DNA of 64,000 bases from Arcobacteraceae bacterium (GTDB lineage Bacteria > Campylobacterota > Campylobacteria > Campylobacterales > Arcobacteraceae): the NCBI GenBank assembly GCA_963662945.1, contig OY759974.1, positions 800,001 to 864,000 on the forward strand, written 5' to 3'. The notes below the pieces were generated by a model. The model was not told the origin of the DNA, ran no database searches, and worked only from the letters and a program-made list of their open reading frames with translations. The position numbers and the translations under genes are program-made. Of this stretch, positions 11,766 to 27,548 are shown piece by piece. Numbering within the stretch: the first letter of the stretch is position 1; each line of letters starts with the position of its first letter.

Positions 11766-11939
11766 CTATTTGTTGTAAGGAATGAAACTATTTGGCATAT
11801 TAGCATCTACACTATTTTTTATCATTGTGTATCCAAGCCCAATAGCCAATAATCCAGCTATTACTAAATAAACAATTTTTCTTTTTTGTGGAGATTCTTT
11901 TCCATCATAATCTTCAATTTGACTTAATGTTGGTTCCAT
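11766..11939 (-). CDS. Small single-TM membrane protein (57 aa; absent from the ORF track)
   Basis: MEPTLSQIEDYDGKESPQKRKIVYLVIAGLLAIGLGYTMIKNSVDANMPNSFIPYNK; AAGGA RBS; TATAAT at 11971-11976 on the minus strand. Confidence 0.8.
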   Translation of the reverse strand: MEPTLSQIEDYDGKESPQKRKIVYLVIAGLLAIGLGYTMIKNSVDANMPNSFIPYNK

Positions 11940-11970: not shown

Positions 11971-12002
11971 ATTATAAAATTTCTTTGTTAATCAGATGTT
12001 AA
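11971..12002 (-). promoter_or_regulatory. TTAACA direct-repeat promoter, copy A (drives the 57-aa gene)
   Basis: Minus strand TTAACA-TCTGA-TTAACA-N9-TATAAT. Confidence 0.75.
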
Positions 12003-12034
12003 TTAACGATTAATTAACATTCCTATACTACCAT
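12003..12034 (+). promoter_or_regulatory. TTAACA direct-repeat promoter, copy B (OprC-like receptor)
   Basis: TTAACG-ATTAA-TTAACA-N9-TACCAT. Confidence 0.7.
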
Positions 12035-14073: not shown

Positions 14074-14081
14074 TCAATAAC

Positions 14082-14100
14082 AAGAGGGGTTTCCCCTCTT
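14082..14100 (+). terminator. Hairpin/terminator after the receptor gene
   Basis: AAGAGGGG-TTT-CCCCTCTT. Confidence 0.7.
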
Positions 14101-14112
14101 AATAAAACCTCT

Positions 14113-14167: not shown

Positions 14168-14605
14168 ATGAATATAGAGTTATTAAAAGAGATTGTAGAT
14201 TATGGAATTATTGGCCTCTTAGGTTTTATGAGTTTTCTCTCATTTTGGCTTTATATAGAAAGACTTTTATTTTATAAAAATATCAATATCAAAAATTATG
14301 CAAAAAAAGAACAACTCGAAATAGAACTTACAAACAATATCTCAATTATCTCTTCATTTGGTTCAAATGCACCATATATTGGACTTCTTGGAACTGTCTT
14401 TGGTATCATTATCACATTTTACACTATGGGTCAAAGTGGAGATATAGATGTAAAAACTATTATGAGTTCTTTAGGTCTTGCACTTAAAGCTACAGCTATG
14501 GGTCTTCTTGTAGCAATACCAGCAATAATGTTTTATAATCATTTAACAAGAAAAATTGAAGTTAAACTAGCACTTTGGGATATGGAGTTTAAAAGTGCAG
14601 CTTAA
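14168..14605 (+). CDS. exbB: TonB system energizer ExbB
   Basis: NAPYIGLLGTVFGI...ALKATAMGLLVAIPA. Confidence 0.95.
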   Translation: MNIELLKEIVDYGIIGLLGFMSFLSFWLYIERLLFYKNINIKNYAKKEQLEIELTNNISIISSFGSNAPYIGLLGTVFGIIITFYTMGQSGDIDVKTIMSSLGLALKATAMGLLVAIPAIMFYNHLTRKIEVKLALWDMEFKSAA

Positions 14606-14975
14606 AAAGTTTGATTCTATAAATGTTGTACCATTTATAGATATTATGCTTGTACTTTTAGTCATTGTACTTACAACTGCATCTTTTGTAGCACGTGGCA
14701 TAATACCTGTAGACTTAAGTGAAGGAAAAAGTGCTCTAAAATTAACAGAACAAAAGATTATAACTATCACAATTAAAGACTCTGGAGAATTATTTCTAGA
14801 TAAAGAACTTACTACACATAAAAAAATTGAGGAAAAACTTTCACAACTTAAAACTTCAACACCTATTAGCATAAATTGTGATAAAAATGCAAAATTTGAG
14901 AACTTTGTTCAAGTCATTGATATCTTAAAATTAAAAAACTTCACAAATCTAAGTATTATTACAAAACAAGAATAA
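14595..14975 (+). CDS. exbD: TonB system protein ExbD
   Basis: INVVPFIDIMLVLLVI; overlaps the exbB stop. Confidence 0.95.
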   Translation: MQLKKFDSINVVPFIDIMLVLLVIVLTTASFVARGIIPVDLSEGKSALKLTEQKIITITIKDSGELFLDKELTTHKKIEEKLSQLKTSTPISINCDKNAKFENFVQVIDILKLKNFTNLSIITKQE

Positions 14976-14994
14976 TCTTATTTATAACTTAAAA

Positions 14995-15026
14995 TTAACA
15001 TCTAATTAACACTTCTTAGTTATTAT
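14995..15026 (+). promoter_or_regulatory. TTAACA direct-repeat promoter, copy D (receptor-DCCP operon)
   Basis: TTAACA-TCTAA-TTAACA-N9-TATTAT. Confidence 0.8.
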
Positions 15027-15052: not shown

Positions 15053-17185
15053 ATGTTAATGAATAACAAGATATGTATATCACTTATCTGTGCACTTGCA
15101 CTAAGTGGAAATGCAGCAGATTTGGGTACTATAAGTGTTGAATCTTCAACAATTGATGATAAATTTGAAAGTAAAAAAACTGAAGTTTCAAATACAGCAA
15201 TTATAACTTCTGAAGATGTAGAGAAAATTCATGCTACTAATGTTGAAAATATACTTAATACAATACCAGGAATTACAGCTTCAAATGTAGGAAATGATAG
15301 AGTTAAGATACACATAAGAGGTATAGATAACCAAATGTATATGGGTGAAAAACCAGGAGTTGCTGTTGTAATTGATGGTGTACCAGTACAAGAAACAACT
15401 GGTAAAATTAATCTAGACCTCGATAATATTGCTTCAATTAAAGTAATCAAAGGAAGTGCAAGTTACCTTTATGGGAATGATGCAATTGCAGGTGCAATAG
15501 TTATAACAACAAAAAGACCAAAAGGTTTAAGTAGTTCAAAATTAGAAACAGAACTTGGTAGTTTTGGATTTAAAAGAATATTAGCTGGAACAAATCAAAG
15601 TTTAGAAAATGGTGCTTTTCAACTACAAGGTACTATACGAGATAGTGATGGTTATTGGGATGATGCATATTTAAAACATAAATCAATTAATGGTAAATAT
15701 CAACACTATCTAAGCGAAACAAGTGATTTAACATTTGGAGCAGATTATACAAAACGAGAAACAGGAGATGGTTCAAGTGTACATGGAGAAACACAATCTA
15801 TACTTAATCCTAAAAGTGTTACTGAAGTTTCTTATGCTGGTTATTATGATACAACACTGATTAAAACTTTTCTAACCTATTCTAATGATATTGATGAGAA
15901 TTCAAATTTTATGGTAAATGTCTCAAGATATGAAGACGATACTACTAACCTTTCTGGATCGACAGATACTAATGGTGATAATATTAATGATGACCACAAA
16001 ACTATATCTGATGAAAAATGGATTCAAAATACATTTAAAAGTGAATATAGAAGGTCTTTTGAGAAAATTGCAATTATGACTGGTATAGATTTAGCAAGAA
16101 ATGAACAAAAGAATAAAAGTATTGCAAATTTAACTGTTGGTGGTTTTAGTCCTCAAACAAAAGGAGATATTACAGGTGATTCTAATAATAATGAAGATAT
16201 CAATGCCATATATTTTGAAGTACAAAACCAATTAACGAACAATTTAACTTCAACAATAAATTTTAGGCATGATAATATAAAATATGATTATAAAAATAAT
16301 CTTGATATGACTCTAAATACTGCACCATCATATGATGCAAATACCTATAGAGTAGGATTTAATTATAAATTAAGTGACACAGATAATATTTACACAAGTT
16401 ATGCAACAGGATTTAGAGCACCAACAGCAGAGCAAATAAGTGGAAATATTGATAAACTTCAAGCAAATCCAACATTTGATATTCCAACTACTCTTGATAT
16501 AGAAACTACGAAGAATATAGAACTAGGAATTAGAGGAGACATCTCATCATTAAAATATGATGCTTCTATTTATCAACTTGATAGAAAAGACTATTTAGGT
16601 GTAAGAGCTGGTTCTTATATTAGAGCTTCTGATGATAAAGCAGATTTAGCCGTAGATAATCTGGGAGATATGAGAAGTAGAGGATTTGAATTAGCTCTTA
16701 ATAGTGATAGAAAAAAAGCCATCTCATTTTCAACTGCTTATACATATTTAGATGCAAAATTTAAAGAATATTCATTAAAACAATTAGTTCAAGACAATGT
16801 TTTTCCAATAGCCGATGTTTATCAAACAGTTAATTTAGCAGGAAAAAGAGTACCTAGAACATCAAAACATACTTTAAATATCACTGTTGACTTTAGACCA
16901 ATTGATGGGCTTACAATATCGCCAGAACTTATAGCAAAAAGTAGTTACTATGCAGATGAATTAAACAAATTCAAACAACCTGGCTATGAAATTATAAATT
17001 TAAGATCAGAATATAAAATAAATAAATCTCTGGAAATTTTTGCTAAAATAGAAAACCTTTTAGATAAGAACTACAATCAGTTCGTAAATGTAAGCTCAAG
17101 TGATATTGCAAATAATATGGAAGATGCAACAATCCGTGTTGCACCACCTAGAGCATATTATGCTGGACTTAGATACAAGTTTTAA
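15053..17185 (+). CDS. TonB-dependent receptor, substrate unknown
   Basis: Signal peptide, plug IPGI...IRG...IDGVP...IKGSASYLYGNDAIAG, C-terminal RYKF. Confidence 0.93.
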   Translation: MLMNNKICISLICALALSGNAADLGTISVESSTIDDKFESKKTEVSNTAIITSEDVEKIHATNVENILNTIPGITASNVGNDRVKIHIRGIDNQMYMGEKPGVAVVIDGVPVQETTGKINLDLDNIASIKVIKGSASYLYGNDAIAGAIVITTKRPKGLSSSKLETELGSFGFKRILAGTNQSLENGAFQLQGTIRDSDGYWDDAYLKHKSINGKYQHYLSETSDLTFGADYTKRETGDGSSVHGETQSILNPKSVTEVSYAGYYDTTLIKTFLTYSNDIDENSNFMVNVSRYEDDTTNLSGSTDTNGDNINDDHKTISDEKWIQNTFKSEYRRSFEKIAIMTGIDLARNEQKNKSIANLTVGGFSPQTKGDITGDSNNNEDINAIYFEVQNQLTNNLTSTINFRHDNIKYDYKNNLDMTLNTAPSYDANTYRVGFNYKLSDTDNIYTSYATGFRAPTAEQISGNIDKLQANPTFDIPTTLDIETTKNIELGIRGDISSLKYDASIYQLDRKDYLGVRAGSYIRASDDKADLAVDNLGDMRSRGFELALNSDRKKAISFSTAYTYLDAKFKEYSLKQLVQDNVFPIADVYQTVNLAGKRVPRTSKHTLNITVDFRPIDGLTISPELIAKSSYYADELNKFKQPGYEIINLRSEYKINKSLEIFAKIENLLDKNYNQFVNVSSSDIANNMEDATIRVAPPRAYYAGLRYKF

Positions 17186-17199
17186 AAGAGTAAAATAAC

Positions 17200-17859
17200 T
17201 TGGAACTTACCCCATATCTCTCTATATTTCTTATAGGACTTAGTTTTGGAGCAACGGCATGCATGTTTTCATGTATGCCGTTTCTTACTCCAATATTGGT
17301 AAAGAGTTCTAACAATATTAAAGAATCTTTAGGTGTAATGATTCCTTTTAGTTTAGGAAGAATTTTCACTTATACCATGATTGCTATTTTAGCATTTGCA
17401 AGTTCTTTATTCATAAAAGAGCTTTTAAAAAACAATACACTTTTGAGTTATATTTTAGGAACAGTTACTATTATCTTAGGTTTCACAATGCTTTATAATA
17501 GCTATAAAAACAATAAAGGATGCGGTATCCATAAACCTATAGTAAAAGAACAAAGTTTTTCAAAACTAGGTTTTTTTACTATGGGTGCAACTATATCTAT
17601 AAATCTATGTACACCTGTAATTTCACTGATAACAGTTTCAAGTAGCACTACTACAATCTATTCAGCAATCGCTTTTGGAATAGCTTTTGGTGTTGGGGCT
17701 GTTTTATTTACACTGTTATTTTACGGATTTTTTTTCTCTACACTTATTAGAGGATTGCTTGAACAATTTAACCAGTATAAAAAACATGTAGAAGTTATAG
17801 CTTCACTGTTTTTAATACTTGTTGGTATTTTAATAATCAGTGGCAAGTTGTCACTATAA
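17200..17859 (+). CDS. DsbD_2/CcdA-like (TauE/UreH-like) multi-TM protein
   Basis: ACMFSCMP in TM1, LGRIFTY motif, later LCTP; about six TM helices; TTG start. Confidence 0.75.
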   Translation: MELTPYLSIFLIGLSFGATACMFSCMPFLTPILVKSSNNIKESLGVMIPFSLGRIFTYTMIAILAFASSLFIKELLKNNTLLSYILGTVTIILGFTMLYNSYKNNKGCGIHKPIVKEQSFSKLGFFTMGATISINLCTPVISLITVSSSTTTIYSAIAFGIAFGVGAVLFTLLFYGFFFSTLIRGLLEQFNQYKKHVEVIASLFLILVGILIISGKLSL

Positions 17860-17868
17860 AGGAACAAA

Positions 17869-20592
17869 ATGGTTGATTTTATCAAAAGAGATAACAATGA
17901 TATGTTTAAAAACCCTATTTTTAGGTTTTTATTTAAAAATACAAAATTTCTTTTAGTTTTAAGAATAGCAGTTACACTGCTTTTCTTTTATGCTGTTTAT
18001 TTTGGATTTGTACATCCTACTTCTGAAGAGAACATCTTCACAGGTGCAGTATTTTGGGGAATATTCTGGGCACTATTTATGGTAGTGACTCTTTCAACTT
18101 TTGGAAGAATATTTTGTGGTATTTGTCCACATGGATTTTTAGGAAAATATATTACAAAATTTGGTTTGAAAAAAACCATGCCAAACTGGATGCAAAATAG
18201 ATATATTGGTATCACTTTACTAGTAATTGGTTGGTGGGGAATTTATTATACATTTCCTTCATTTTGGAAAACACCAATTGGAACTGCTTCTATGTTTGGA
18301 GGGATGACATTAATTGCTTTTATTTTTTATTTTATCTATAAAGAGATGAGTTATTGTAAATATATTTGTCCTATTGGAACACTTACAAGAGCATATGACA
18401 AATTATCATTTACAAAACTAGAAACTTATACTGACTCTTGTAAGGATTGTAGAACTTTTGAATGTGCTACAGCTTGTCAATACGATTTAAAACCATTTAC
18501 CTTTGCAAAGAAAAATCAAACTGATGATTGTACCTTATGTATGGATTGTGCTGTATCTTGTGAAGCTGTTAAATTTAAACTTACAAAACCAGCAGAACAA
18601 CTAGGAAGTAAACTAAAAATTTTAAGTGCTGAAGTTTGGACGTATATTCTTATCTTTGCTTCTATTCCTGTATCTATGGGATTTGCACATGGTTTAAATA
18701 GAACTAAAATAGCTGATGAGTTTCTATGGAATAAAACGGCTGCTTTTTTTGGTATGAATGAATATGCAGGTGGATTTGCTTTCCTATATGCTGTTATTTT
18801 TAGTGTATTTTTCGCTACATTTGGAATCTATGTAGCATCTAAAATATTAAAAAAAGAATACAGTTCTACCTTTACTAATTTAGGTGTTGCTTTTATTCCA
18901 CTTTTTATCTTTGCATCACTAGGGCATACATTAGAAACTTTTTTTATCAAAGATTATGTAACAATAGTAGATGGATTTGCACAAGGTTTTGGTTTTAATG
19001 TTGAAGTGGAAGCTTTAGCAAAAAGAGGTGATGGATGGCTTCACTATTTTGGATTATTTAAATGGATAGGAATTATCTGGTCATTTATTCTTCTTTACAA
19101 AAGAATGAAAATGATTGATGCTACAAAATTACGAAAAATATTTGGATACTTTTTTGCTTCATTAATGATTCTTTTTTACATAGGATTAAATATCTATACA
19201 GGATATGTATTTTCTAAATATGGGGCAAAATCACGAAGTGGACATTCTCACGGTGGAAATGGAAAAACAATGTTCCAAAGTGTACCTTTTAAACAAGCTA
19301 CACTTTTACAAGTGGGAAAAGATAAAACAAGTGGTGTAGTATGTGGGATGAATCTTCCTATGTTTTATAAAACAAACCATAGTGCGATACTTGATGGACA
19401 GGTGCGACAATATTGTTCAATACATTGTTTAGCTGAAGATTTACGAATAAAAAATTTAGCTTTGGAAAATATTCAAGTTGTAGATGTAACCAGTTTAAAA
19501 TTCATCCCAGTTAAAGATGCTTTTTATGTGGTTGGAAGTAAACAGCTAGGAACTATGAGTAGAACTAGTAAATATGCTTTTGCTACAGAAAAAGATGCTT
19601 TAGAATTTGTTCAAAAATACGGTGGAGAAATTGTAAATTTTAGAAAAGCAGTTTATATTGCAATGCAAGATTTTTCAAAAAAACCTTATGGAACTCATAC
19701 AGAAAAAACTGCTTTAGATTTGACACAACCATTATATCTTACACTTAAAGACCCCTCTGCATCTAAAGAAAAGTCAGGTGGACATATGCACGGTGGTAGT
19801 GGTGGAAAACCTAAACCTGAAGGATATATCCCCACACAAAAAATATATCTTTCTACTTTAAATAATAAAAGTGTATCTCCTAAAAATATAGAGTTTTTTT
19901 ACTATGATATAAAACAAAAGAAAAAAGATATTATCAAAAATAGTTCAAGAGGAAAAGAAACATATAGTTTTGAAGTACCAAACAATGGATACTACAATCT
20001 TTTTGCTGTAGCACAAAGTACAAAAGATGATAAAAGTTTTTATAATGTAGCAAAACTTGAATATCTTCAAGGAAAACATGGTATTGAAGATATTTATGAT
20101 GAAAAACTTAAAAAAAATCTTGAACAAAACCTTACTAAAATTGATTTAATAAGAATAAAAAATGAAGATGAAAATAGCTTTTTTTATAAATTTAAAATGG
20201 GTGAAACTCTAAAGTTTCAAGCAATATTTGATCAAAAACCTTTAGCAAATGCAAAAATACATATCAAACTCCAAAGTGGTTGGGAAAAAACTTCAATTAC
20301 AAATGATAAAGGTGAAGTAGAACTTACAATTATAAGAGATTATTTTCCACCTTGGAATAAATTTGAAAAACGATTTAAACAAGATTTATTAATAACTTTA
20401 GAACATAATATAGAGAATACAAAATATACACTCACCTACCCTGCTTCTTTTTATCCAAACTCTAGTGATTATGAATCGTATGCTTATGCACTGTTACTTA
20501 TAACACTTACACTACTTATATCTGGTATTGTTATTTATAGATTTAGAAAAAATAGAACAAAACCTTTTAGTGAGGTAAACTTTAATGAGTAA
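17869..20592 (+). CDS. Fusion of membrane 4Fe-4S polyferredoxin, NosL-like metal-binding domain and DUF4198-like domain, with a C-terminal TM anchor
   Basis: GRIFCGICPHG, CKYICPIG, CKDCRTFECATAC, CTLCMDCAVSC; His linkers GHSHGG and GHMHGG; VVCGM...RQYCSIHC...VVGS...GTM NosL-like segment; KPLANAKI...TNDKGEV. Confidence 0.8.
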   Translation: MVDFIKRDNNDMFKNPIFRFLFKNTKFLLVLRIAVTLLFFYAVYFGFVHPTSEENIFTGAVFWGIFWALFMVVTLSTFGRIFCGICPHGFLGKYITKFGLKKTMPNWMQNRYIGITLLVIGWWGIYYTFPSFWKTPIGTASMFGGMTLIAFIFYFIYKEMSYCKYICPIGTLTRAYDKLSFTKLETYTDSCKDCRTFECATACQYDLKPFTFAKKNQTDDCTLCMDCAVSCEAVKFKLTKPAEQLGSKLKILSAEVWTYILIFASIPVSMGFAHGLNRTKIADEFLWNKTAAFFGMNEYAGGFAFLYAVIFSVFFATFGIYVASKILKKEYSSTFTNLGVAFIPLFIFASLGHTLETFFIKDYVTIVDGFAQGFGFNVEVEALAKRGDGWLHYFGLFKWIGIIWSFILLYKRMKMIDATKLRKIFGYFFASLMILFYIGLNIYTGYVFSKYGAKSRSGHSHGGNGKTMFQSVPFKQATLLQVGKDKTSGVVCGMNLPMFYKTNHSAILDGQVRQYCSIHCLAEDLRIKNLALENIQVVDVTSLKFIPVKDAFYVVGSKQLGTMSRTSKYAFATEKDALEFVQKYGGEIVNFRKAVYIAMQDFSKKPYGTHTEKTALDLTQPLYLTLKDPSASKEKSGGHMHGGSGGKPKPEGYIPTQKIYLSTLNNKSVSPKNIEFFYYDIKQKKKDIIKNSSRGKETYSFEVPNNGYYNLFAVAQSTKDDKSFYNVAKLEYLQGKHGIEDIYDEKLKKNLEQNLTKIDLIRIKNEDENSFFYKFKMGETLKFQAIFDQKPLANAKIHIKLQSGWEKTSITNDKGEVELTIIRDYFPPWNKFEKRFKQDLLITLEHNIENTKYTLTYPASFYPNSSDYESYAYALLLITLTLLISGIVIYRFRKNRTKPFSEVNFNE

Positions 20593-21601
20593 AATCAAAC
20601 AACTTGTAAATAATATGAATCTTATCAAAGTAAGATTTACTATTCAATTACTGACTTTTATTTTATTTGTTTATGGTGGTTATTTTGCCATTGATTTTGG
20701 TTCAAGACTGCCTATTTTTGCCTGTCCTTATAATAAAGAAGCAGCTGGAGCTTGTTATTTAATTCCATTACAACATCAGTTAGGTATGCCAGCACAAATA
20801 TTACTTGGTGGGGCTGGAATTGCAGTTATTACTGGATTTTTAACATTTCTTTTTTGGTTTATATTTCTAAATAAAGCTTGGTGTGGATATGTATGTCCTT
20901 TTGGAACATTACAAGATTGGCTAACAATGCTTAGAAAAAATATGGGTATACGTTTTTCAACATATACACAAAATCAATTTGAAAAACTTTCAAAAATAAA
21001 ATATATCCTTTTAGCTATTGTTATTTTAGTACCTCTTCTTATGGGTGTTGGCGTTTTTGGAAGAGAATGGTCTGCTGCATTTTGTCAAATCTGTCCAGCA
21101 CGAATCATCTCTCCTATGTTTAGTGGAGATTTCTCTCAATGGACAATAGACTTTTCTACTAAAACAGCCATGGTATTAACTGCTATTGGGATGATATTTG
21201 CTGGATTATTTTTAATTGGTAGTTTTGTAAAAAAAAGATTCTTTTGCTTCTTTTGTCCGATGAGTGCCTTGCATTATATTTTTTCAAAGTTCTCAATTGT
21301 AAGTTTACAAAAAGATGGAAGTAAATGTACACGATGTGGAGATTGTTATGCTGTATGTGATATGCAGATAAAAGATATAGCAGATGATGTTACAAGTACA
21401 AATATCTTAAGAGATGATTGTATTTTATGTTTAAAATGTATAGCTGCATGTCCGGAAGATGATGCACTGCATTTTGATATATTAAAATTCAAAACTTTTA
21501 GCTCTACAAAACAAGGTTTTGAAAAGAGAATGGGAATAGAAAGACCAAAACAAGCTGAGGCGAAGTTTCCTCGAAAAGGATTAAATGATGAGCAACAATG
21601 A
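20585..21601 (+). CDS. NapH/MauN-like membrane 4Fe-4S protein
   Basis: WCGYVCPFG, FCFFCPMS, CTRCGDCYAVC, CILCLKCIAACP; several TM helices. Confidence 0.88.
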   Translation: MSKIKQLVNNMNLIKVRFTIQLLTFILFVYGGYFAIDFGSRLPIFACPYNKEAAGACYLIPLQHQLGMPAQILLGGAGIAVITGFLTFLFWFIFLNKAWCGYVCPFGTLQDWLTMLRKNMGIRFSTYTQNQFEKLSKIKYILLAIVILVPLLMGVGVFGREWSAAFCQICPARIISPMFSGDFSQWTIDFSTKTAMVLTAIGMIFAGLFLIGSFVKKRFFCFFCPMSALHYIFSKFSIVSLQKDGSKCTRCGDCYAVCDMQIKDIADDVTSTNILRDDCILCLKCIAACPEDDALHFDILKFKTFSSTKQGFEKRMGIERPKQAEAKFPRKGLNDEQQ

Positions 21602-22868
21602 GAATCATAAAATAGAAACACCACTTGAAAAACAAAACAGACATAAAGCTATGGAAGCAATTAAGGTAATTAATACTTTAAAAGAAGAGTTTAAATCTCC
21701 TATAAAATCTATGGATTATTTTTATACACTTTTTGAAGATGTATATTGTCATCAAAAATCACTTCATGCTGATAAAGTAAAAGTGGGAACCATGTGTATT
21801 CAAATACCAAGTGAAATTATATATGCACTTGATGGTGTTCCTATTCGACTTTGTAACGGATTTTATACAGATGATGAGCTAGGAAGTGATCTTATGCCTC
21901 AAAAATCTTGTCCACTGGTTAAAGCAAGTGTTGGGCACTTGTCAAGTCAAAATTTAAGTGACAAACCACATATGATTTATAGTCCTACAACTTGTGATCA
22001 AAAAACAAAAGCTGGTGCAACTATTGAAAGTTTTGGATATGAGGTAGTTGATGTAGATTTCCCAAGAACAAAAGAGAGTGAGGTAAGTCGTGAATTTTTT
22101 AGAAGAAGTATCAGAAATTTTGCCATAGATTTATCAAAAAAAACTGGAAAAAAACTCACTAAAAAAAATTTAAAAAGCTCCATTGGAAAAGTTGGTTATG
22201 CACAATCTTTATATCATAGACTATCTGATTTAAGAAAAAATAAAAATGTACCAATATTAGGTGTTGATATGTTTTTAGTTACCAATGCTTTTTTCTTTGA
22301 TAAAATTGACAATTGGATAAAAGCTACAGAAATTTTACTGCATGACTTAGAGTTAAGGGTAAAAGAAAATATTCATGTAGCAGGAAAAATCAGTCCAAGA
22401 ATAGTTTATACAGGTTCACCACCTATTTTCCCAAATTATAAAATACCATTACTTATTGAAGAATCAGATGCAGTTATAGTTGCAGATGAAACTTGCAGTT
22501 CAAATAGAATGTTCAACGATCGAGTTGCAGTGGATGAATGGTTTGTAAATGATATGTTGGATTCTATGGCAGATAAATATCTTAAGGCTTGTACTTGTCC
22601 AATATTTACAAAAAATGATGACCGTATTCGAAGAATTATAGAACTTGTTCGTTCATATGATGCAGATGGTGTTATCTATCAAGCTTTTGCTGGTTGTACT
22701 GTATATGAGTTAGAACAAAGAAGTGTTTTAGAAGCTATGGAAAAAGAGGGGATCTCTATACTTTATTTAGAAAGTGATTATTCACCTAGCCAAAGTGGAC
22801 AGCTAAGTACCAGAGTTGAAGCATTTATAGAATCACTCAAAATGAAAAAAAGAAAAAAAGGAAAATAG
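21585..22868 (+). CDS. 2-hydroxyacyl-CoA dehydratase (HGD-D) family protein, probable double-cubane cluster protein (DCCP)
   Basis: Single 427-aa subunit with C71, C109, C137(xxK140), C304, C338 and C371(xxY374); C-terminal LESDY...TRVEAFIE. Confidence 0.82.
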   Translation: MMSNNENHKIETPLEKQNRHKAMEAIKVINTLKEEFKSPIKSMDYFYTLFEDVYCHQKSLHADKVKVGTMCIQIPSEIIYALDGVPIRLCNGFYTDDELGSDLMPQKSCPLVKASVGHLSSQNLSDKPHMIYSPTTCDQKTKAGATIESFGYEVVDVDFPRTKESEVSREFFRRSIRNFAIDLSKKTGKKLTKKNLKSSIGKVGYAQSLYHRLSDLRKNKNVPILGVDMFLVTNAFFFDKIDNWIKATEILLHDLELRVKENIHVAGKISPRIVYTGSPPIFPNYKIPLLIEESDAVIVADETCSSNRMFNDRVAVDEWFVNDMLDSMADKYLKACTCPIFTKNDDRIRRIIELVRSYDADGVIYQAFAGCTVYELEQRSVLEAMEKEGISILYLESDYSPSQSGQLSTRVEAFIESLKMKKRKKGK

Positions 22869-22869
22869 T

Positions 22870-23673
22870 ATGAAATATTTTGCTGGAATCGATATAGGTT
22901 CAACTGCCATTAAAATCTCAATAGCTGATGAAAATAAAAATCTTGTAGGACACAAAATCAGTGCAAGTGGAAGTATGTTTTATAAATATGCTCATGAAAC
23001 TTTAGATGCACTTGTTTCAGAAATAGGGATAAAAAAAGAAGATATTATATACACTGTAGCAACTGGTTATGGAAGAAAAATATTTAAAGAAGCTGATGAA
23101 AATATTAGTGAAATTACTGCAAATGCGATAGGTGCACGAGCTGCCGCTAAAGAATATGGAGAGATTAAAACTATTATTAATATTGGTGGTCAAGATAGTA
23201 AAGCAATTTCACTAGATGAAGAGGGAAATGTAACAAATTTTGCTATGAATGACAGATGTGCAGCTGGTACTGGAAAATTTCTTGATGCATGTGCTATGAA
23301 TCTTGAAATAACAGTAGAAGAACTTGGAGATAAACATTTTGCCTCAACTGGAACACCATTATCAATCAATAGTACTTGTGCAGTATTTGCAGAGAGTGAA
23401 ATTATAGGACTTTTAGGGAATAGTCATAGTGTCGAAGATATTGTATGTGGTGTACACTATTCTATTGCAAAAAGAATTGTAAAACTTGTAAAAAGAGTTG
23501 GTGTCAAAGAAGGAGTATATTTTGATGGTGGTCCAGCACTTAATACAGGATTAGTCAATGCACTTGAAAATGAACTTAGTTGTAAGATATTTATTCCTCA
23601 ATATCCACAAATCACTACATCTTATGGAGCAGCGATTATTGGAGTAGATTCTTATAATTACGAAAATGAATAA
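22870..23673 (+). CDS. ASKHA-type ATP-dependent [4Fe-4S] activase (HgdC/BcrAD/BadFG family; DCCP reductase-like)
   Basis: GIDIGST, ATGYGR, IGGQDSK, MNDRCAAGTG, STCAVFAESE. Confidence 0.93.
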   Translation: MKYFAGIDIGSTAIKISIADENKNLVGHKISASGSMFYKYAHETLDALVSEIGIKKEDIIYTVATGYGRKIFKEADENISEITANAIGARAAAKEYGEIKTIINIGGQDSKAISLDEEGNVTNFAMNDRCAAGTGKFLDACAMNLEITVEELGDKHFASTGTPLSINSTCAVFAESEIIGLLGNSHSVEDIVCGVHYSIAKRIVKLVKRVGVKEGVYFDGGPALNTGLVNALENELSCKIFIPQYPQITTSYGAAIIGVDSYNYENE

Positions 23674-23677
23674 TTAA

Positions 23678-26600
23678 ATGTTTGACAAAACTATAAAATT
23701 TTTTATTGAAAATTATAAAATAAACTATGCTTTATTTATATTCTTATTTATTGTCGGAATCTATTCTTATACAAAAATTCCTAAAGAAGTACAACCAACT
23801 ATTGAACCTAGCACTATAAGGGTAAGCGGAAATTACAGTGGAGCTTCTGTTGACATTTTAAATAAAATGGCTGTCATACCTTTAGAAAATGAAGTAAAAA
23901 ATATTGTTGGTGTAGATAATATTATTACAAATATCAATCCAGGTAAATTTTCTATCACTTTAGAACTTGATAAATACGAGAAAAAAGAGGATATAAAAGA
24001 AAATGTAAAAGATGCAATTGCAATGATTATCTCTGATTTACCAGCAGATATGGATGAACCTTTGATTAAAGCTGTTGCTCATGCACGTTCATTAATGTAT
24101 GTTTCAGTTCTTTCTACAAAAATCTCTAGAGATGATCTTTTAAAAATTGCAAAAGATTTAAAAACAACTCTTTTAGGCATCCCTTTTATTTCAGATATTA
24201 CAATATTTGGTGAATCAGATGAATATTATGAAATACAAATTGATGAAAAAAAAATAGAAGCTTTTGGACTAGAAAAAAAAGATATCTCTTCAATAATTGC
24301 TGAACTCTCTTATACTTTTCCAGCAGGAAAAATGGAAGGGAAAAAAAATCAATTTTATCTTTCAACTGCAAATGGGAAAAAAAGTGCTGAAAACTTAGCA
24401 AATACACTTTTAAAAATAAATGATAAAACAATCTATTTTAAAGATATAGCTACCATTACAAAACGTTATGAAGATTCTTCAACACTTGCTAGTATGAATG
24501 GGAAAGGCGCTATTACACTTGCTATCTCACAAAATCCAAGAGGTGATGCCATAACATTATCAGAACAAGTGAGAGATGTACTTGATAAATCAAAAAAAGC
24601 AAATATTACTTTTGATATTAAAAGAGATAATTCATTTCAAGTAAAAGAGAGTTTAAATATAGTTTTCTCAAATATCATTTTTGGAATACTATTAATTTGT
24701 TTATTTACTATTGTTCTTATTAATTCCCGTATGGCATTAGTTATTATTATGGGTATACCAACTTCTTTTGTTATAGGTGCAATCTATTTTTATTTTACAG
24801 GATATAGTATTAATGTACAATCACTTGTAGGAGTACTTTTAGCAATTGGTATTATTGTTGATGATGCAATTGTTGTAAGTGAAAATATTCAACAATATAT
24901 TGAACGTGGCTATCCACCAAAAGAAGCTGCATATTTGGGAACAAAAGAGATGGCAAAACCAGTTTTTTGGGCATCTGTAACTACTCTTTTCTCATTTATA
25001 CCATTGTTAATGATTAGTGGTAGAATGGGTGAAATTATTCAGCTTATTCCTATAGCATTTAGTGCACTTATTTTTGCTTCACTTATTGAGTCATTCATCT
25101 TTTTACCTATACATGCTTCCCATATTTTAAATAATAATTCAAAAACCTTATCATGGGAAAAAAGCAAAAATATTTACACTAAAATTTTACATAACTTGAT
25201 GAAATATAAAAAAAGTTTTTTACTGATTTTTATTATCAGCGTTCCATTACTCATATTTTTTAGTGCAAAGCATTCAAAATTTCATATGTTTCAAAAATTT
25301 GATTCATCAAATGTAAACATTACCTTTAAAGGGAATAAAAATATGACACTTGAAGAAACATCTTTAATGGTACGTCAAATAGAACAAGACCTTTTAAAAT
25401 CCAAAGAGAAATTTTTTATAAAAAATGTAAGTTCAACAGCTGGTCATAGAAGAACAGCAACGGGAGAAACAGAAATTTATCCTTATGTTGGGAATATTAC
25501 AGTTGAACTTTATGAAAAAAAACCAAGTAATTTTTTCGAAGCATATATTAGCCCTTTGTTTAGTATTTATTATGAAAAAGAGGGACGAATACGAACCCTT
25601 CCATCTAAAGTTGTATCAAAACAATTGCGAGGTTGGTTAAAAGAACAACATTATAAAAGAAAATATAAATTAGAGCAAATAATGGTTGTTGAAAATAGAA
25701 TGGGAGCAACAAAAGCTGATATTAGAATTGGGTTAGTCAGTAATGATTACCAAAAAGCTTTACAAGGGGTAGATGAACTTCAAAAAGAGATTGAAAATAT
25801 AAAAGGGGTTAAATATAGTGGGAATAATATTAAATTTGGGATTGATGAACTGAAATTTCATATTAATAGCTATGGAGAATCACTTGGTGTAACAGAAAAA
25901 TATCTTGGTAATTTCTTAGCAAATGTCTATATGGATAAAAAAATAGCAACAATTTATGGTACAAATGAATCATTTGAGGTTAAATCAAAATCACTTTATA
26001 GTGATAATTTTGATTACTTTAAAAATATCACTATACCTTTAAAAGATTCAAGAGTAGTACACTTGCACGAGATATGTGATATATCTACCATAAAATCACT
26101 TGAGAAATTAGTCAAAGATAATGGTATTACTACATTTTATGTTTTTGCAAACGTTGATAATGATATCATCACTTCAAGTGAGGTTTTAGAAAAAATACAA
26201 CCAACAATAAAGAAACTAAAACAAAATGGTATAAAATTTATTTTCAAAGGGGAACAAGAGCAAAAGAAAAAACTAGAAATAGAGATGCTTCTATCAATAC
26301 TTTTAGCTCTTAGCTTAATATTTTTATCACTTCTTTATCTTTTTAACTCCATTAAAGAAACTCTTTTAGTGATGTCTGTTATTCCATTTTCTATGCTTGG
26401 GCTTTATATGGGACATTTTATTTTAGGATTACATATAACAGTTCCATCACTTATTGGTGCAATTGGACTTGCTGGTGTTATTGTTAATGATGGAATTATT
26501 ATGATGGACTCTATTAAAAAATCAACAACCCAAAAAGAGTTTTTTCACAATGCTGCTAAAAGATTTAGACCAATTATTTTAACCTCTATTACTACAATTG

Positions 26601-26758
26601 TTGGATTGTTTACACTTATCTTTTTTGCAACTGGTATGGCTGTTAGTTTTCAACCAATGGCTGTAACAATAGGGTTTGGACTTCTTTGGGGGACTATTTT
26701 AAATCTTTTATATTTACCTGTAATGTATGGATATTTTAATAATAAGCATTTAAAGTGA
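23678..26758 (+). CDS. RND-family (AcrB-like) permease
   Basis: 1026 aa; IGIIVDDAIVVSENI; RFRPIILTSITT. Confidence 0.93.
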   Translation: MFDKTIKFFIENYKINYALFIFLFIVGIYSYTKIPKEVQPTIEPSTIRVSGNYSGASVDILNKMAVIPLENEVKNIVGVDNIITNINPGKFSITLELDKYEKKEDIKENVKDAIAMIISDLPADMDEPLIKAVAHARSLMYVSVLSTKISRDDLLKIAKDLKTTLLGIPFISDITIFGESDEYYEIQIDEKKIEAFGLEKKDISSIIAELSYTFPAGKMEGKKNQFYLSTANGKKSAENLANTLLKINDKTIYFKDIATITKRYEDSSTLASMNGKGAITLAISQNPRGDAITLSEQVRDVLDKSKKANITFDIKRDNSFQVKESLNIVFSNIIFGILLICLFTIVLINSRMALVIIMGIPTSFVIGAIYFYFTGYSINVQSLVGVLLAIGIIVDDAIVVSENIQQYIERGYPPKEAAYLGTKEMAKPVFWASVTTLFSFIPLLMISGRMGEIIQLIPIAFSALIFASLIESFIFLPIHASHILNNNSKTLSWEKSKNIYTKILHNLMKYKKSFLLIFIISVPLLIFFSAKHSKFHMFQKFDSSNVNITFKGNKNMTLEETSLMVRQIEQDLLKSKEKFFIKNVSSTAGHRRTATGETEIYPYVGNITVELYEKKPSNFFEAYISPLFSIYYEKEGRIRTLPSKVVSKQLRGWLKEQHYKRKYKLEQIMVVENRMGATKADIRIGLVSNDYQKALQGVDELQKEIENIKGVKYSGNNIKFGIDELKFHINSYGESLGVTEKYLGNFLANVYMDKKIATIYGTNESFEVKSKSLYSDNFDYFKNITIPLKDSRVVHLHEICDISTIKSLEKLVKDNGITTFYVFANVDNDIITSSEVLEKIQPTIKKLKQNGIKFIFKGEQEQKKKLEIEMLLSILLALSLIFLSLLYLFNSIKETLLVMSVIPFSMLGLYMGHFILGLHITVPSLIGAIGLAGVIVNDGIIMMDSIKKSTTQKEFFHNAAKRFRPIILTSITTIVGLFTLIFFATGMAVSFQPMAVTIGFGLLWGTILNLLYLPVMYGYFNNKHLK

Positions 26759-26767
26759 TATTTAAAA

Positions 26768-26810
26768 TTAACACTTAATTAACACTTCTTTTATAAAATG
26801 GAAGTGTTAA
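26768..26810 (+). promoter_or_regulatory. TTAACA direct-repeat promoter, copy E (tonB), with an extra inverted copy downstream
   Basis: TTAACA-CTTAA-TTAACA-N9-TAAAAT, then GAAGTGTTAA (reverse complement of TTAACACTTC). Confidence 0.8.
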
Positions 26811-26831: not shown

Positions 26832-27548
26832 TTGAATATAAAAAGATATTTTAATTCGTTTTTTGTAGCTTCTATATTCTATAGTTTCTTAATTATTACT
26901 CTTCTTTATTCATTTGAAGAAGTCAATATTGCACCTTCAAAAACACAACATTCAATCCAAAATGTCAAATTTACCCTTATTAATTTACCAAAAGAAATAG
27001 AAAAACCTGAAGTTGAAAAACAAGAGATTGTTAAAAAAGAACCTCAACCTAAACAAATAGAACCAAAAGTTGTTAAAAAAATTAATCCTAAAAAAATATC
27101 TCCTAAAAAAATTGTTAAAAAAATAGAACCAAAAGTTGAAAAAAAAGAAAAAGAAATTGTTAAAAAAACAGAAAAGATAAAAAAACAAATTGTTGCAAAT
27201 CAAATTAAAAAAAGTGACTCTACTGAAAAAAAAGAAACTGTAAAAACTGATTTAAAACAATTAAAAATGAAACAACATAAATATTATTCTCAAATCAAAC
27301 AAACAATTGATAAAAATAAATCATATCCTCAAGTTGCTGTACGAAGAGGAATTCAAGGTGAAGTAAAAATACAATTTACAATATCAAAAGATGGTGAGTT
27401 ACTTTCATATAAAATATTAGATGGACAAAAAATATTTTTTAAGTCTATCAGTGAAGCTATACAAAATAGTTTCCCTCTTATTCCTCCAAATGATATTTTT
27501 ACATCAAACCTAGATTTAAAATTAACATTACACTATAAGTTGTATTAA
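26832..27548 (+). CDS. tonB: Energy transducer TonB
   Basis: N-terminal TM, K/P/E-rich linker, C-terminal YPQVAVRRGIQGEVKIQFTISKDG. Confidence 0.92.
   Translation: MNIKRYFNSFFVASIFYSFLIITLLYSFEEVNIAPSKTQHSIQNVKFTLINLPKEIEKPEVEKQEIVKKEPQPKQIEPKVVKKINPKKISPKKIVKKIEPKVEKKEKEIVKKTEKIKKQIVANQIKKSDSTEKKETVKTDLKQLKMKQHKYYSQIKQTIDKNKSYPQVAVRRGIQGEVKIQFTISKDGELLSYKILDGQKIFFKSISEAIQNSFPLIPPNDIFTSNLDLKLTLHYKLY

Follow-up and report, generated by a model that had tools for sequence, protein, structure and literature searches.

The locus

The window considered here, a stretch of 64,000 nucleotides (nt; 29% G+C) at G000:C1:800001-864000 (GenBank contig OY759974.1) in the genome of an Arcobacteraceae bacterium, carries two adjacent genes, one for a protein of the type known as double-cubane cluster proteins (DCCP) and one for an archerase-type ATPase equivalent to the DCCP reductase (DCCP-R), and the pair lies inside an operon for TonB-dependent uptake. 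An OprC-like TonB-dependent receptor, ExbB and ExbD are encoded upstream; a second receptor, a DsbD_2/CcdA-like membrane protein, a 907-residue membrane protein and a NapH-like polyferredoxin lead into the DCCP gene; and the ATPase gene is followed by those for an RND permease and then TonB. The genes from 15053 to 26758 lie close together, overlapping or no more than 15 nt apart: the DCCP gene begins 17 nt inside the NapH-like gene, its TAG stop ends at 22868, and a single T separates it from the ATG of the ATPase gene at 22870. The genome itself is a single contig of 2,497,315 bases, 99.99% complete, and its nearest public relatives are metagenome-assembled genomes of Arcobacteraceae, at 95-96% protein identity.

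DCCPs, whose [8Fe-9S] cluster is nitrogenase-like, can reduce acetylene, azide and hydrazine; what they do in the cell is, according to the authors of the solved structures, unknown (PMC9351452, PMC7317905). The present pair is read here, with moderate confidence, as the cytoplasmic, very-low-potential reductase module of a TonB-dependent system for acquiring a transition metal, which in this genome is probably copper.

The double-cubane-type protein and its ATPase

The DCCP-type protein (P0001, open reading frame (ORF) 21585-22868) matches the HGD-D family PF06050 over residues 71-418 (Pfam, E 2.5e-87), and its top solved relatives are two entries for the DCCP of Carboxydothermus hydrogenoformans (7YYL_C, E 3.8e-61; 6ENO_A, E 1.1e-60; 209-210 bits), after which come BzdN, MbdN and HadC at 60, 56 and 48 bits (E 2e-15 to 7e-12). 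Among family models NF040772 is the best by far, at 318.4 bits, as against 72 and 67 bits for the bzdN and HadC models. Cysteines stand at positions 71, 90, 109, 137, 304, 338 and 371, accompanied by K140 in a CxxK and Y374 in a CxxY; a scripted check of these nine positions spelled CCCCKCCCY, and in the HMMER alignment all nine face identical residues in 7YYL and 6ENO. The family is defined by the motif CX19CX18-19CX29CX166-170CX32-34CX32C, in which six cysteines are ligands and Cys94 is the seventh (PMC7317905). P0001 carries the seven-cysteine motif with spacings of X18, X18, X27, X166, X33 and X32; its first three cysteines align to DCCP gap-free, and a 2-residue deletion precedes the fourth. 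The main texts of PMC7317905 and PMC9351452 make no mention of a role for the motif lysine and tyrosine.

A structural model of P0001, built on 49 sequences (mean predicted local distance difference test score, pLDDT, 90.6), superposes on 7YZM_A and 6ENO with template modelling (TM) scores of 0.88-0.90 and a root mean square deviation of 2.1 Å. Because the match spans 415-416 columns, and 415 of 421 residues align, it takes in the N-terminal helices by which the CoA funnel of the C. hydrogenoformans protein (DCCP_Ch) is closed. Foldseek ranks DCCP (E 1e-27) ahead of dehydratase and benzoyl-CoA reductase subunits (2e-18 and 8e-17).

A search of 1.84 billion cluster representatives returned 142 proteins at E <= 1e-30. 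Of 150 proteins listed for the family alignment, the 90 with 370-490 residues were kept and 60 fragments or fusions dropped, giving 91 rows with P0001; all 91 match NF040772, and the six ligand cysteines are each at least 90% conserved. In a FastTree phylogeny of these rows, midpoint-rooted and built with no outgroup, P0001 groups with P0126, P0127, P0128, P0129, P0131 and P0132 in a separate clade, while P0156, used as a proxy for 6ENO because it scores 539 bits to it, is placed elsewhere and is 34% identical to P0001. Judged by alignment, score and tree, P0001 belongs to the DCCP family broadly defined; it occupies a separate branch and is not a close orthologue, and an [8Fe-9S] cluster is predicted for it.

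The adjacent ATPase (P0002, ORF 22870-23673) is nearest to HadI (4EHT, E 4e-61) and farther from DCCP-R (7YYL_E, E 5e-36). Its cluster cysteines C129 and C170 align in five solved archerases (HadI, HgdC, MbdQ/P and DCCP-R), and the equivalents of E69 and D94 of DCCP-R, proposed as bases, are kept. Residues 104-109 read NIGGQD, where the first position is Asp in all five solved archerases. The asparagine is present in 77 of 77 Campylobacterota orthologues; among 55 metagenome ATPases, 53 have NIGGQD, one has NVGGQD and one is without the motif, so that NIGGQD occurs in 130 of 132 in total, and the asparagine is, across the sequences sampled, a fixed trait of the clade.

Among all the alternatives considered in this study, the least probable is that the pair represents a subunit of some ordinary 2-hydroxyacyl-CoA dehydratase or benzoyl-CoA reductase, along with the activator of that enzyme. 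The public annotation of the orthologues is indeed 2-hydroxyacyl-CoA dehydratase or BcrC/BadD/HgdB, and the greater resemblance of the ATPase to HadI than to DCCP-R points the same way. Such enzymes need two paralogous subunits, however, and PF06050 has one match in the whole genome; since that genome is 99.99% complete, no second dehydratase-type subunit is to be found anywhere in it. The margin by which DCCP outscores BzdN, MbdN and HadC, the double site formed by three cysteines in each half of one chain, and the N-terminal helices of the model argue in the same direction against a dehydratase.

The initial annotation, drawn from the letters alone, had described a single HGD-D gene with cysteines at 71/109/137 and 304/338/371 plus CxxK and CxxY, followed 1 nt later by an activase with NIGGQD where DIGGQD is usual, and each of these features is indeed present in the two ORFs. 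It had noted that the six-cysteine spacing with Lys and Tyr matches the C. hydrogenoformans DCCP and had named beforehand, as tests, alignment of the cysteines to the DCCP ligands and grouping apart from the heterodimeric dehydratases; the cysteines do align, with C90 as a seventh, and the bit scores given above set the protein with DCCP. Its statement that there is no second dehydratase subunit extends to the entire genome, and its statement that there is no CoA-transferase holds for the 25 neighbouring ORFs scanned with Pfam, the rest of the genome not having been searched for one. The DCCP identity needs qualifying: family and fold stand, with the reservation that the protein belongs to a separate clade and scores under the NF040772 cut-off.

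Conservation and distribution

The unit was followed in two sets of related loci. The first comprises the best 80 loci among 121 confirmed relatives in genome contigs, all with Campylobacterota-type neighbours, although a few titles suggest mis-binning. By ORF clustering, the DCCP is found in 80 of these, the ATPase in 77, the NapH-like protein in 74, the 907-residue type in 64, DsbD_2 in 60 and a receptor in 56, followed by ExbB (46), TonB (41), ExbD (38), the RND permease (25), an OmpR-type regulator (15) and a histidine kinase (7). Many of the loci are short contigs, and the missing genes are therefore partly a matter of truncation. The second set is the 80 metagenome loci nearest to cluster P0127, which is 54% identical to P0001 and bears Gallionellaceae and Gammaproteobacteria names. 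Here the DCCP was found in 68 loci, DCCP-R in 55, a NapH-like protein in 51, a DUF4198-like protein in 44 and DsbD_2 in 42, together with receptors and ExbBD/TonB; the order is DUF4198-like, NapH-like, DCCP, ATPase, DsbD_2 and ExbB/ExbD/TonB, with receptors nearby, and a NosL domain is found in none of the 80. In 4 of the 80 (e.g. L160:4990-6216) the genes downstream of the unit include one for a PepSY_TM protein, a kind associated with ferric-siderophore reduction.

Within the family of the window's own genome, 27 of 184 species genomes, representing 10 of 22 genera, carry a DCCP orthologue. In a class-wide sample, 24 of 151 genomes match at E <= 1e-30; three of them, including the present genome, exceed 57% identity, and the remaining matches are other DCCP-family members at 30-35% identity. 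In the same sample, the DCCP-family homologues of about 388 residues in genus g7 (e.g. G133, G060 and G063) have an in-frame stop within the match in 12 of 14 genomes (11 TAG, 1 TAA), which could reflect a shared pseudogene, two genes or read-through.

Operator and regulation

The transcription units of the locus share a 19-nt operator, AATTAAC-N3-TAATTAACA, built as a direct repeat whose period is 11 nt. It has exactly 3 copies in the genome, where 0.054 would be expected from an order-0 model, and all lie in this locus (Table 1); minus-strand near-copies at 11986 and 11997 overlap the first. In the related loci, with at most one mismatch allowed and within 200 nt upstream of the gene, the operator precedes the OprC-like gene in 6 of 8 cases, exbB in 16 of 40, the second receptor in 19 of 48 and tonB in 3 of 21. 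Upstream of the internal genes it does not occur, whether for the 907-residue protein (0/45), the NapH-like protein (0/64), the DCCP (0/76), the ATPase (0/78) or the RND permease (0/25), and the reductase pair is therefore taken to be transcribed as interior genes of the unit headed by the receptor.

In form the operator is a response-regulator-type direct repeat, and no Fur, Zur or NikR-type regulator or box was found. In one related locus (L034) an OmpR-type regulator and a short kinase lie directly upstream of the receptor; their orthologues in the present genome (53% and 52% identity) lie at L082:7887-9405 (G000:C1:2417886-2419404), 1.6 Mb from the operon, and are candidate regulators of it. 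The kinase has 291 residues and two membrane helices, and as there is almost no periplasmic loop between them it gives no hint of the signal. Among response regulators, only generic OmpR-type family matches were obtained.

Several further features touch on transcription. At L083:4065-7410 (G000:C1:984064 onward), a fourth operator-like site, with one mismatch, lies 32 nt upstream of the gene for a 455-residue membrane protein with a C-terminal cytochrome c domain; the next genes encode a 396-residue protein without a family match and another OmpR-type regulator, and this locus may belong to the regulon too. On the minus strand, an ORF of 57 codons with a single hydrophobic stretch (window 11766-11939) diverges from the OprC-like gene across the operator region. 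A G+C-rich hairpin at 14081-14101, just past the OprC-like gene and assigned to the minus strand in the terminator scan, suggests that this receptor gene is transcribed alone. A consensus scan of promoters and terminators did no better on the real sequence than on shuffled ones (94 vs 107.6 promoter-like sites, 6 vs 5.4 terminator-like ones).

The surrounding operon

Neighbouring genes were assigned through a Pfam scan of 25 ORFs around the DCCP gene, and through comparison with solved structures; their coordinates are collected in Table 1.

Table 1. Genes and operator copies of the uptake locus, with positions counted from the first letter of the window
Feature	Position	Strand	Basis and detail
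Operator copy 1	12001..12019	+	exact; ~45 nt upstream of OprC-like receptor gene
OprC/NosA-type TonB-dependent receptor, 675 aa	12046..14073	+	best PDB match OprC 6FOK, E 1.6e-30; C100xxxM104, H304xM306
ExbB	14168..14605	+	PF01618, E 2.8e-29
ExbD	14595..14975	+	PF02472, E 3.1e-25
Operator copy 2	14993..15011	+	exact; 60 nt upstream of second receptor gene
Second TonB-dependent receptor, 710 aa, head of the long transcription unit	15053..17185	+	plug and barrel domains
CcdA/DsbD_2-type membrane protein, 219 aa	17200..17859	+	PF13386, E 2.6e-15; CcdA 5VKV, E 1e-3
907-aa membrane protein	17869..20592	+	Fer4_5 and NosL (Pfam); DUF4198-type by fold
NapH-like membrane polyferredoxin, 338 aa	20585..21601	+	Fer4_5 and Fer4_10 (Pfam)
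DCCP-type protein, 427 aa	21585..22868	+	HGD-D PF06050, PDB matches, NF040772, motif, tree and fold
Archerase-type ATPase, DCCP-R equivalent, 267 aa	22870..23673	+	BcrAD_BadFG PF01869, E 1.2e-50; C129, C170, N104
RND permease, 1026 aa	23678..26758	+	PF00873, E 5e-131
Operator copy 3	26766..26784	+	exact; 66 nt upstream of tonB
TonB	26832..27548	+	PF03544, E 2.2e-10

The first receptor is of the OprC type. The copper site of OprC is formed by a CxxxM in the plug and an HxM in the barrel (PMC8610252), and C100/M104 align to C143/M147 of OprC in a strongly scoring piece of the alignment; against TIGR01778 the receptor falls below the cut-off (187.8 vs 472 bits). The second receptor has PqqU and YncD as its best PDB matches (E 3e-23 and 4e-23). 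The CcdA-like protein conserves cysteines 21, 25, 108 and 137 at 99-100% in 98 sequences, and its resemblance to CcdA is weak.

From its N terminus onward, the 907-residue protein carries a NapH-like module with cysteine clusters and further membrane helices, then two domains, one periplasmic and of the NosL type and the next of the DUF4198 type, and finally a C-terminal helix as anchor. Its NosL domain scores 55.4 bits, over the Pfam cut-off, and matches NosL 7OG7 at E 2.6e-5; all 26 orthologues with this domain keep C492, M494, C516, H519, C520 and M563. The DUF4198 assignment comes from fold: the Pfam score is below the cut-off (19.7 vs 34) and a sequence search of this part against the PDB gave nothing below E 0.86, whereas the model of residues 621-907 (287 residues, pLDDT 87.4) has Zcp (9MHN, E 1.6e-10, TMt 0.58-0.60) as its best fold match and also matches the nickel-bound IsDUF4198 9GCB at E 4e-7. 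H639xH641 is kept in 34 and 35 of 49 orthologues and H737 in 49 of 49, and the stretch that holds the HxH (residues 15-25 of the domain model) has a pLDDT below 50. Elsewhere in the same protein, 86% and 84% of 49 orthologues retain H274 and H353 (window 18688-18930), which lie in or beside predicted membrane helices; this is about the same conservation ceiling as that of the Fe-S cysteines of the region, and the two residues could be ligands of a membrane cofactor.

The NapH-like protein has four predicted helices, invariant cysteine pairs in loops on both faces, and two [4Fe-4S] motifs in a C-terminal tail rich in Lys and Arg which, by crude hydropathy and charge count, is probably cytoplasmic. 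It scores 88.6 and 81.9 bits to NF007013 and TIGR02163, whose cut-offs are 234 and 213, and Pfam finds no nap genes in the operon; for these two reasons it is called no more than NapH-like. Beyond ferredoxin motifs it has no solved relative.

The RND permease gene begins 4 nt after the ATPase gene, and its product scores 216.7 bits to the CusA/CzcA heavy-metal model. This proximity, together with the reduction of small reactive molecules by DCCP_Ch in vitro, would suit a defence role in which the DCCP reduces a toxic compound or metal, imported or membrane-permeant, and the pump expels it. Such a role is improbable: the permease is accessory, present in only 25 of the 80 related loci and here lacking an adjacent adaptor or outer-membrane factor, whereas the constant partners of the pair (receptor, ExbBD and TonB) are parts of an import system.

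Which metal, and which substrate

Protein identities, operon layout, the shared operator and conservation are shown by the data, whereas we infer the substrate, which way electrons run and the demand for so low a potential. On that basis the sequence of events under the favoured reading, a reductase module for metal acquisition, can be sketched as follows. The metal would cross the outer membrane through the TonB-dependent receptors and be held in the periplasm by the NosL-type (Cys/Met/His) and His-rich DUF4198-type domains of the 907-residue protein. NapH-like polyferredoxins would link cytoplasmic Fe-S centres with the periplasmic face, and the CcdA-like four-cysteine protein would move either thiol reducing power or the soft metal itself across the inner membrane. 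In the cytoplasm, the ATPase would drive an electron onto the [8Fe-9S] cluster of the DCCP, which would then reduce the imported species, or something bound to it, beyond the reach of ordinary reductants, whereupon the metal would be freed. In the wider clade that lacks the NosL domain, the metal may differ from copper.

A bolder form of the same idea would make the DCCP the core of an ATP-powered machine for reductive metal release, acting on a metal that arrives inert to normal reductants as a sulfide, a thiolate or a tight chelate, forms that are plausible at oxic-sulfidic interfaces; the tethered NosL and DUF4198 domains would hold the metal, and an [8Fe-9S] centre wired through NapH-like proteins would supply electrons below the range of dithionite. 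This specific version is put forward only tentatively.

The signs of copper in the present genome are the OprC-type C/M/H/M ligands kept in the co-regulated receptor and the invariant Cys, Met and His of the NosL-type domain. Furthermore, 10 genomes have their copies of the OprC-like receptor with at least 61% identity no farther than about 13 kb from the DCCP gene. The fold of the DUF4198-type domain, the four invariant cysteines of the CcdA-like protein and the cysteine pairs of the NapH-like protein are counted in the same direction. A family-wide co-occurrence of the two genes was considered and rejected: OprC-like genes are found in 23 of 27 genomes with a DCCP orthologue and in 106 of 157 without one, which is no meaningful association, and the related genomes are not independent of one another.

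Several observations weigh against the favoured reading, or at least against copper as its metal. Firstly, as these counts show, OprC-like genes are common whether or not a DCCP is present, and one lies within 10 kb of the DCCP gene in only 11 of 80 related loci. In the receptor itself, H304/M306 align to H323/M325 of OprC in a weakly scoring piece, and the second receptor, resembling PqqU and YncD, is without any conserved Cys/Met site. Of 49 orthologues of the 907-residue protein, 23 lack the NosL domain, as do the relatives outside Campylobacterota. Secondly, Cu(II)/Cu(I) chemistry by itself needs no reductant below dithionite, and the need for ATP-driven reduction in copper uptake is for that reason unexplained. 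No DCCP has a known substrate, and the present data name none. Thirdly, the RND pump could point to export, not uptake; P0001 scores below the NCBIfam equivalog cut-off of NF040772 (318.4 vs 350 bits); and the best match to the SelD model TIGR00476 in the genome reaches 41 bits against a cut-off of 125, whereas in the survey by Haft and Gwadz nearly all genomes with high-scoring DCCPs have SelD.

The same architecture could instead serve nickel, cobalt, zinc or iron, with the DUF4198-type domain capturing a divalent ion and the reductase serving its release or insertion, a reading that is unlikely. Outside Campylobacterota the conserved core has a DUF4198-like protein and no NosL domain, and the PepSY_TM protein of four metagenome loci is of a type seen with ferric reduction. 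According to two reports, DUF4198 proteins bind metals in the periplasm and cooperate with TonB receptors, the solved examples bind zinc (Zcp) and nickel (IsDUF4198), their neighbourhoods include TonB receptors and NikR, and the metal site of Zcp is made of H29, H31 and H142 (PMC12663993, PMC12537917), which H639xH641 and H737 of the 907-residue protein recall. In this genome, however, the co-regulated receptor is of the OprC type with its copper ligands kept, the Cys and Met of the NosL-type domain suit Cu(I), and the operator is of the response-regulator type with no Fur, Zur or NikR-type regulator or box found.

The uptake or processing of a corrinoid such as vitamin B12 would be in keeping with a known ATP-driven, low-potential task, the reduction of Co(II) to Co(I) (PMC7317905), and the second receptor scores 117 bits to a BtuB model, a value below its cut-off. 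It has only a slim chance of being right: among Rfam families, only transfer RNA and RNase P were over threshold in the window, in 7 Campylobacterota loci and in 8 metagenome loci, and the cobalamin riboswitch RF00174, for which the control matched in 7 of 14 genomes, was absent from these 15 related loci, from the window and from the whole genome. Slimmer still is the chance of a selenium or organometallic substrate, to which the reported link of DCCPs with SelD and SAO would lead; a preprint reports 955 of 970 high-scoring DCCPs in SelD-containing assemblies and proposes organometallic substrates (bioRxiv 10.1101/2022.07.06.499078). The weak SelD match given above stands against it, the operon has no SAO-type genes, and P0001, at 318 bits, lies below the 400-bit group behind the SelD statistic.

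A link with NosZ maturation or activation likewise found no support, as TIGR04246 has no match in the genome; the control gave sub-threshold matches only, in 5 genomes. Two stand-alone NosL proteins are encoded at L164:6754-8660 (G000:C1:1497753-1499659), one of 379 residues with two NosL stretches and one of 239 residues, among housekeeping neighbours.

The initial annotation had also placed the pair in a likely microaerophile, with which the two PF00115 (heme-copper oxidase) matches in the genome (353 and 232 bits) and the Arcobacteraceae relatives agree. Its suggestion that the genomic context is a clue to the natural role of DCCPs holds as well, although the clue lies in a TonB-dependent metal operon that the annotation did not mention.

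Significance and comparison with known systems

The DCCP family, its cluster and its ATPase are already known; its function is not. What the present locus offers is a distinct DCCP clade internal to a TonB-dependent metal-import operon, conserved across several families of sulfur- and iron-oxidising bacteria and furnished with its own operator and a candidate two-component regulator, and with it a testable role for the family. If correct, reductive metal release would be the first role in physiology for a DCCP of any kind and would add a new principle to metal acquisition, and cultured relatives make the question accessible to ordinary experiments. No paper joining 'double-cubane' and 'TonB' was found in the literature searched, and among the matches listed for hydroxyglutaryl-CoA dehydratase with TonB-dependent and NapH, titles and abstracts dealt with unrelated topics only. 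Haft and Gwadz link DCCPs to selenium and to an ABC-type locus and not to TonB, their text having 0 occurrences of TonB, RND or NosL (bioRxiv 10.1101/2022.07.06.499078). New here are the genome-unique operator with its candidate regulator, a co-regulated receptor with its OprC-type site intact, a tethered domain with the fold of Zcp, the asparagine fixed in the ATPase of the clade, and the negative tests of the clade for B12, SelD and NosZ.

Each part of the operon can be set beside a known system. With OprC/NosA and NosL it shares the CxxxM-HxM ligands of the first receptor and a NosL domain over the Pfam cut-off in the 907-residue protein; it differs in that there is no NosZ match, that NosL is fused to a membrane Fe-S protein and a DUF4198-type domain, and that the receptor is below TIGR01778. 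The DUF4198-type domain resembles Zcp of Neisseria gonorrhoeae (9MHL) and IsDUF4198 (9GCB) in its fold, in its association with a TonB receptor and perhaps in its HxH with one distal His, but has redox modules fused to it and a C-terminal helix as its tether. NapH, NosH and NosR have in common with the present polyferredoxin the Fer4_5 membrane module, CxxxCP-type motifs and two 4Fe-4S motifs that are probably cytoplasmic, whereas the latter is far below the NapH cut-off, has extra cysteine pairs in predicted periplasmic loops and lacks nap or nos partners.

For the pair itself, YjiM/YjiL of Escherichia coli, a predicted class II DCCP system (PMC7317905), provides one parallel in its seven-cysteine family and adjacent archerase; YjiM has 388 residues and no N-terminal extension, and representatives of this size are placed in another clade. 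The closest parallel is DCCP/DCCP-R of C. hydrogenoformans (CHY_0487/CHY_0488; 6ENO, 7YYL, 7YZM), which likewise has a single HGD-D chain with seven cysteines, Lys and Tyr, in the long form with N-terminal helices, and an adjacent archerase with two cluster cysteines and the E69/D94 residues. From it the present DCCP is set apart by an identity of about 34% (through the proxy P0156), a separate clade and a 2-residue deletion between the third and fourth cysteines, and the present ATPase by its greater closeness to HadI and its Asn in place of Asp; and, unlike the C. hydrogenoformans pair, the two belong to an operon for TonB uptake in a Campylobacterota bacterium that respires.

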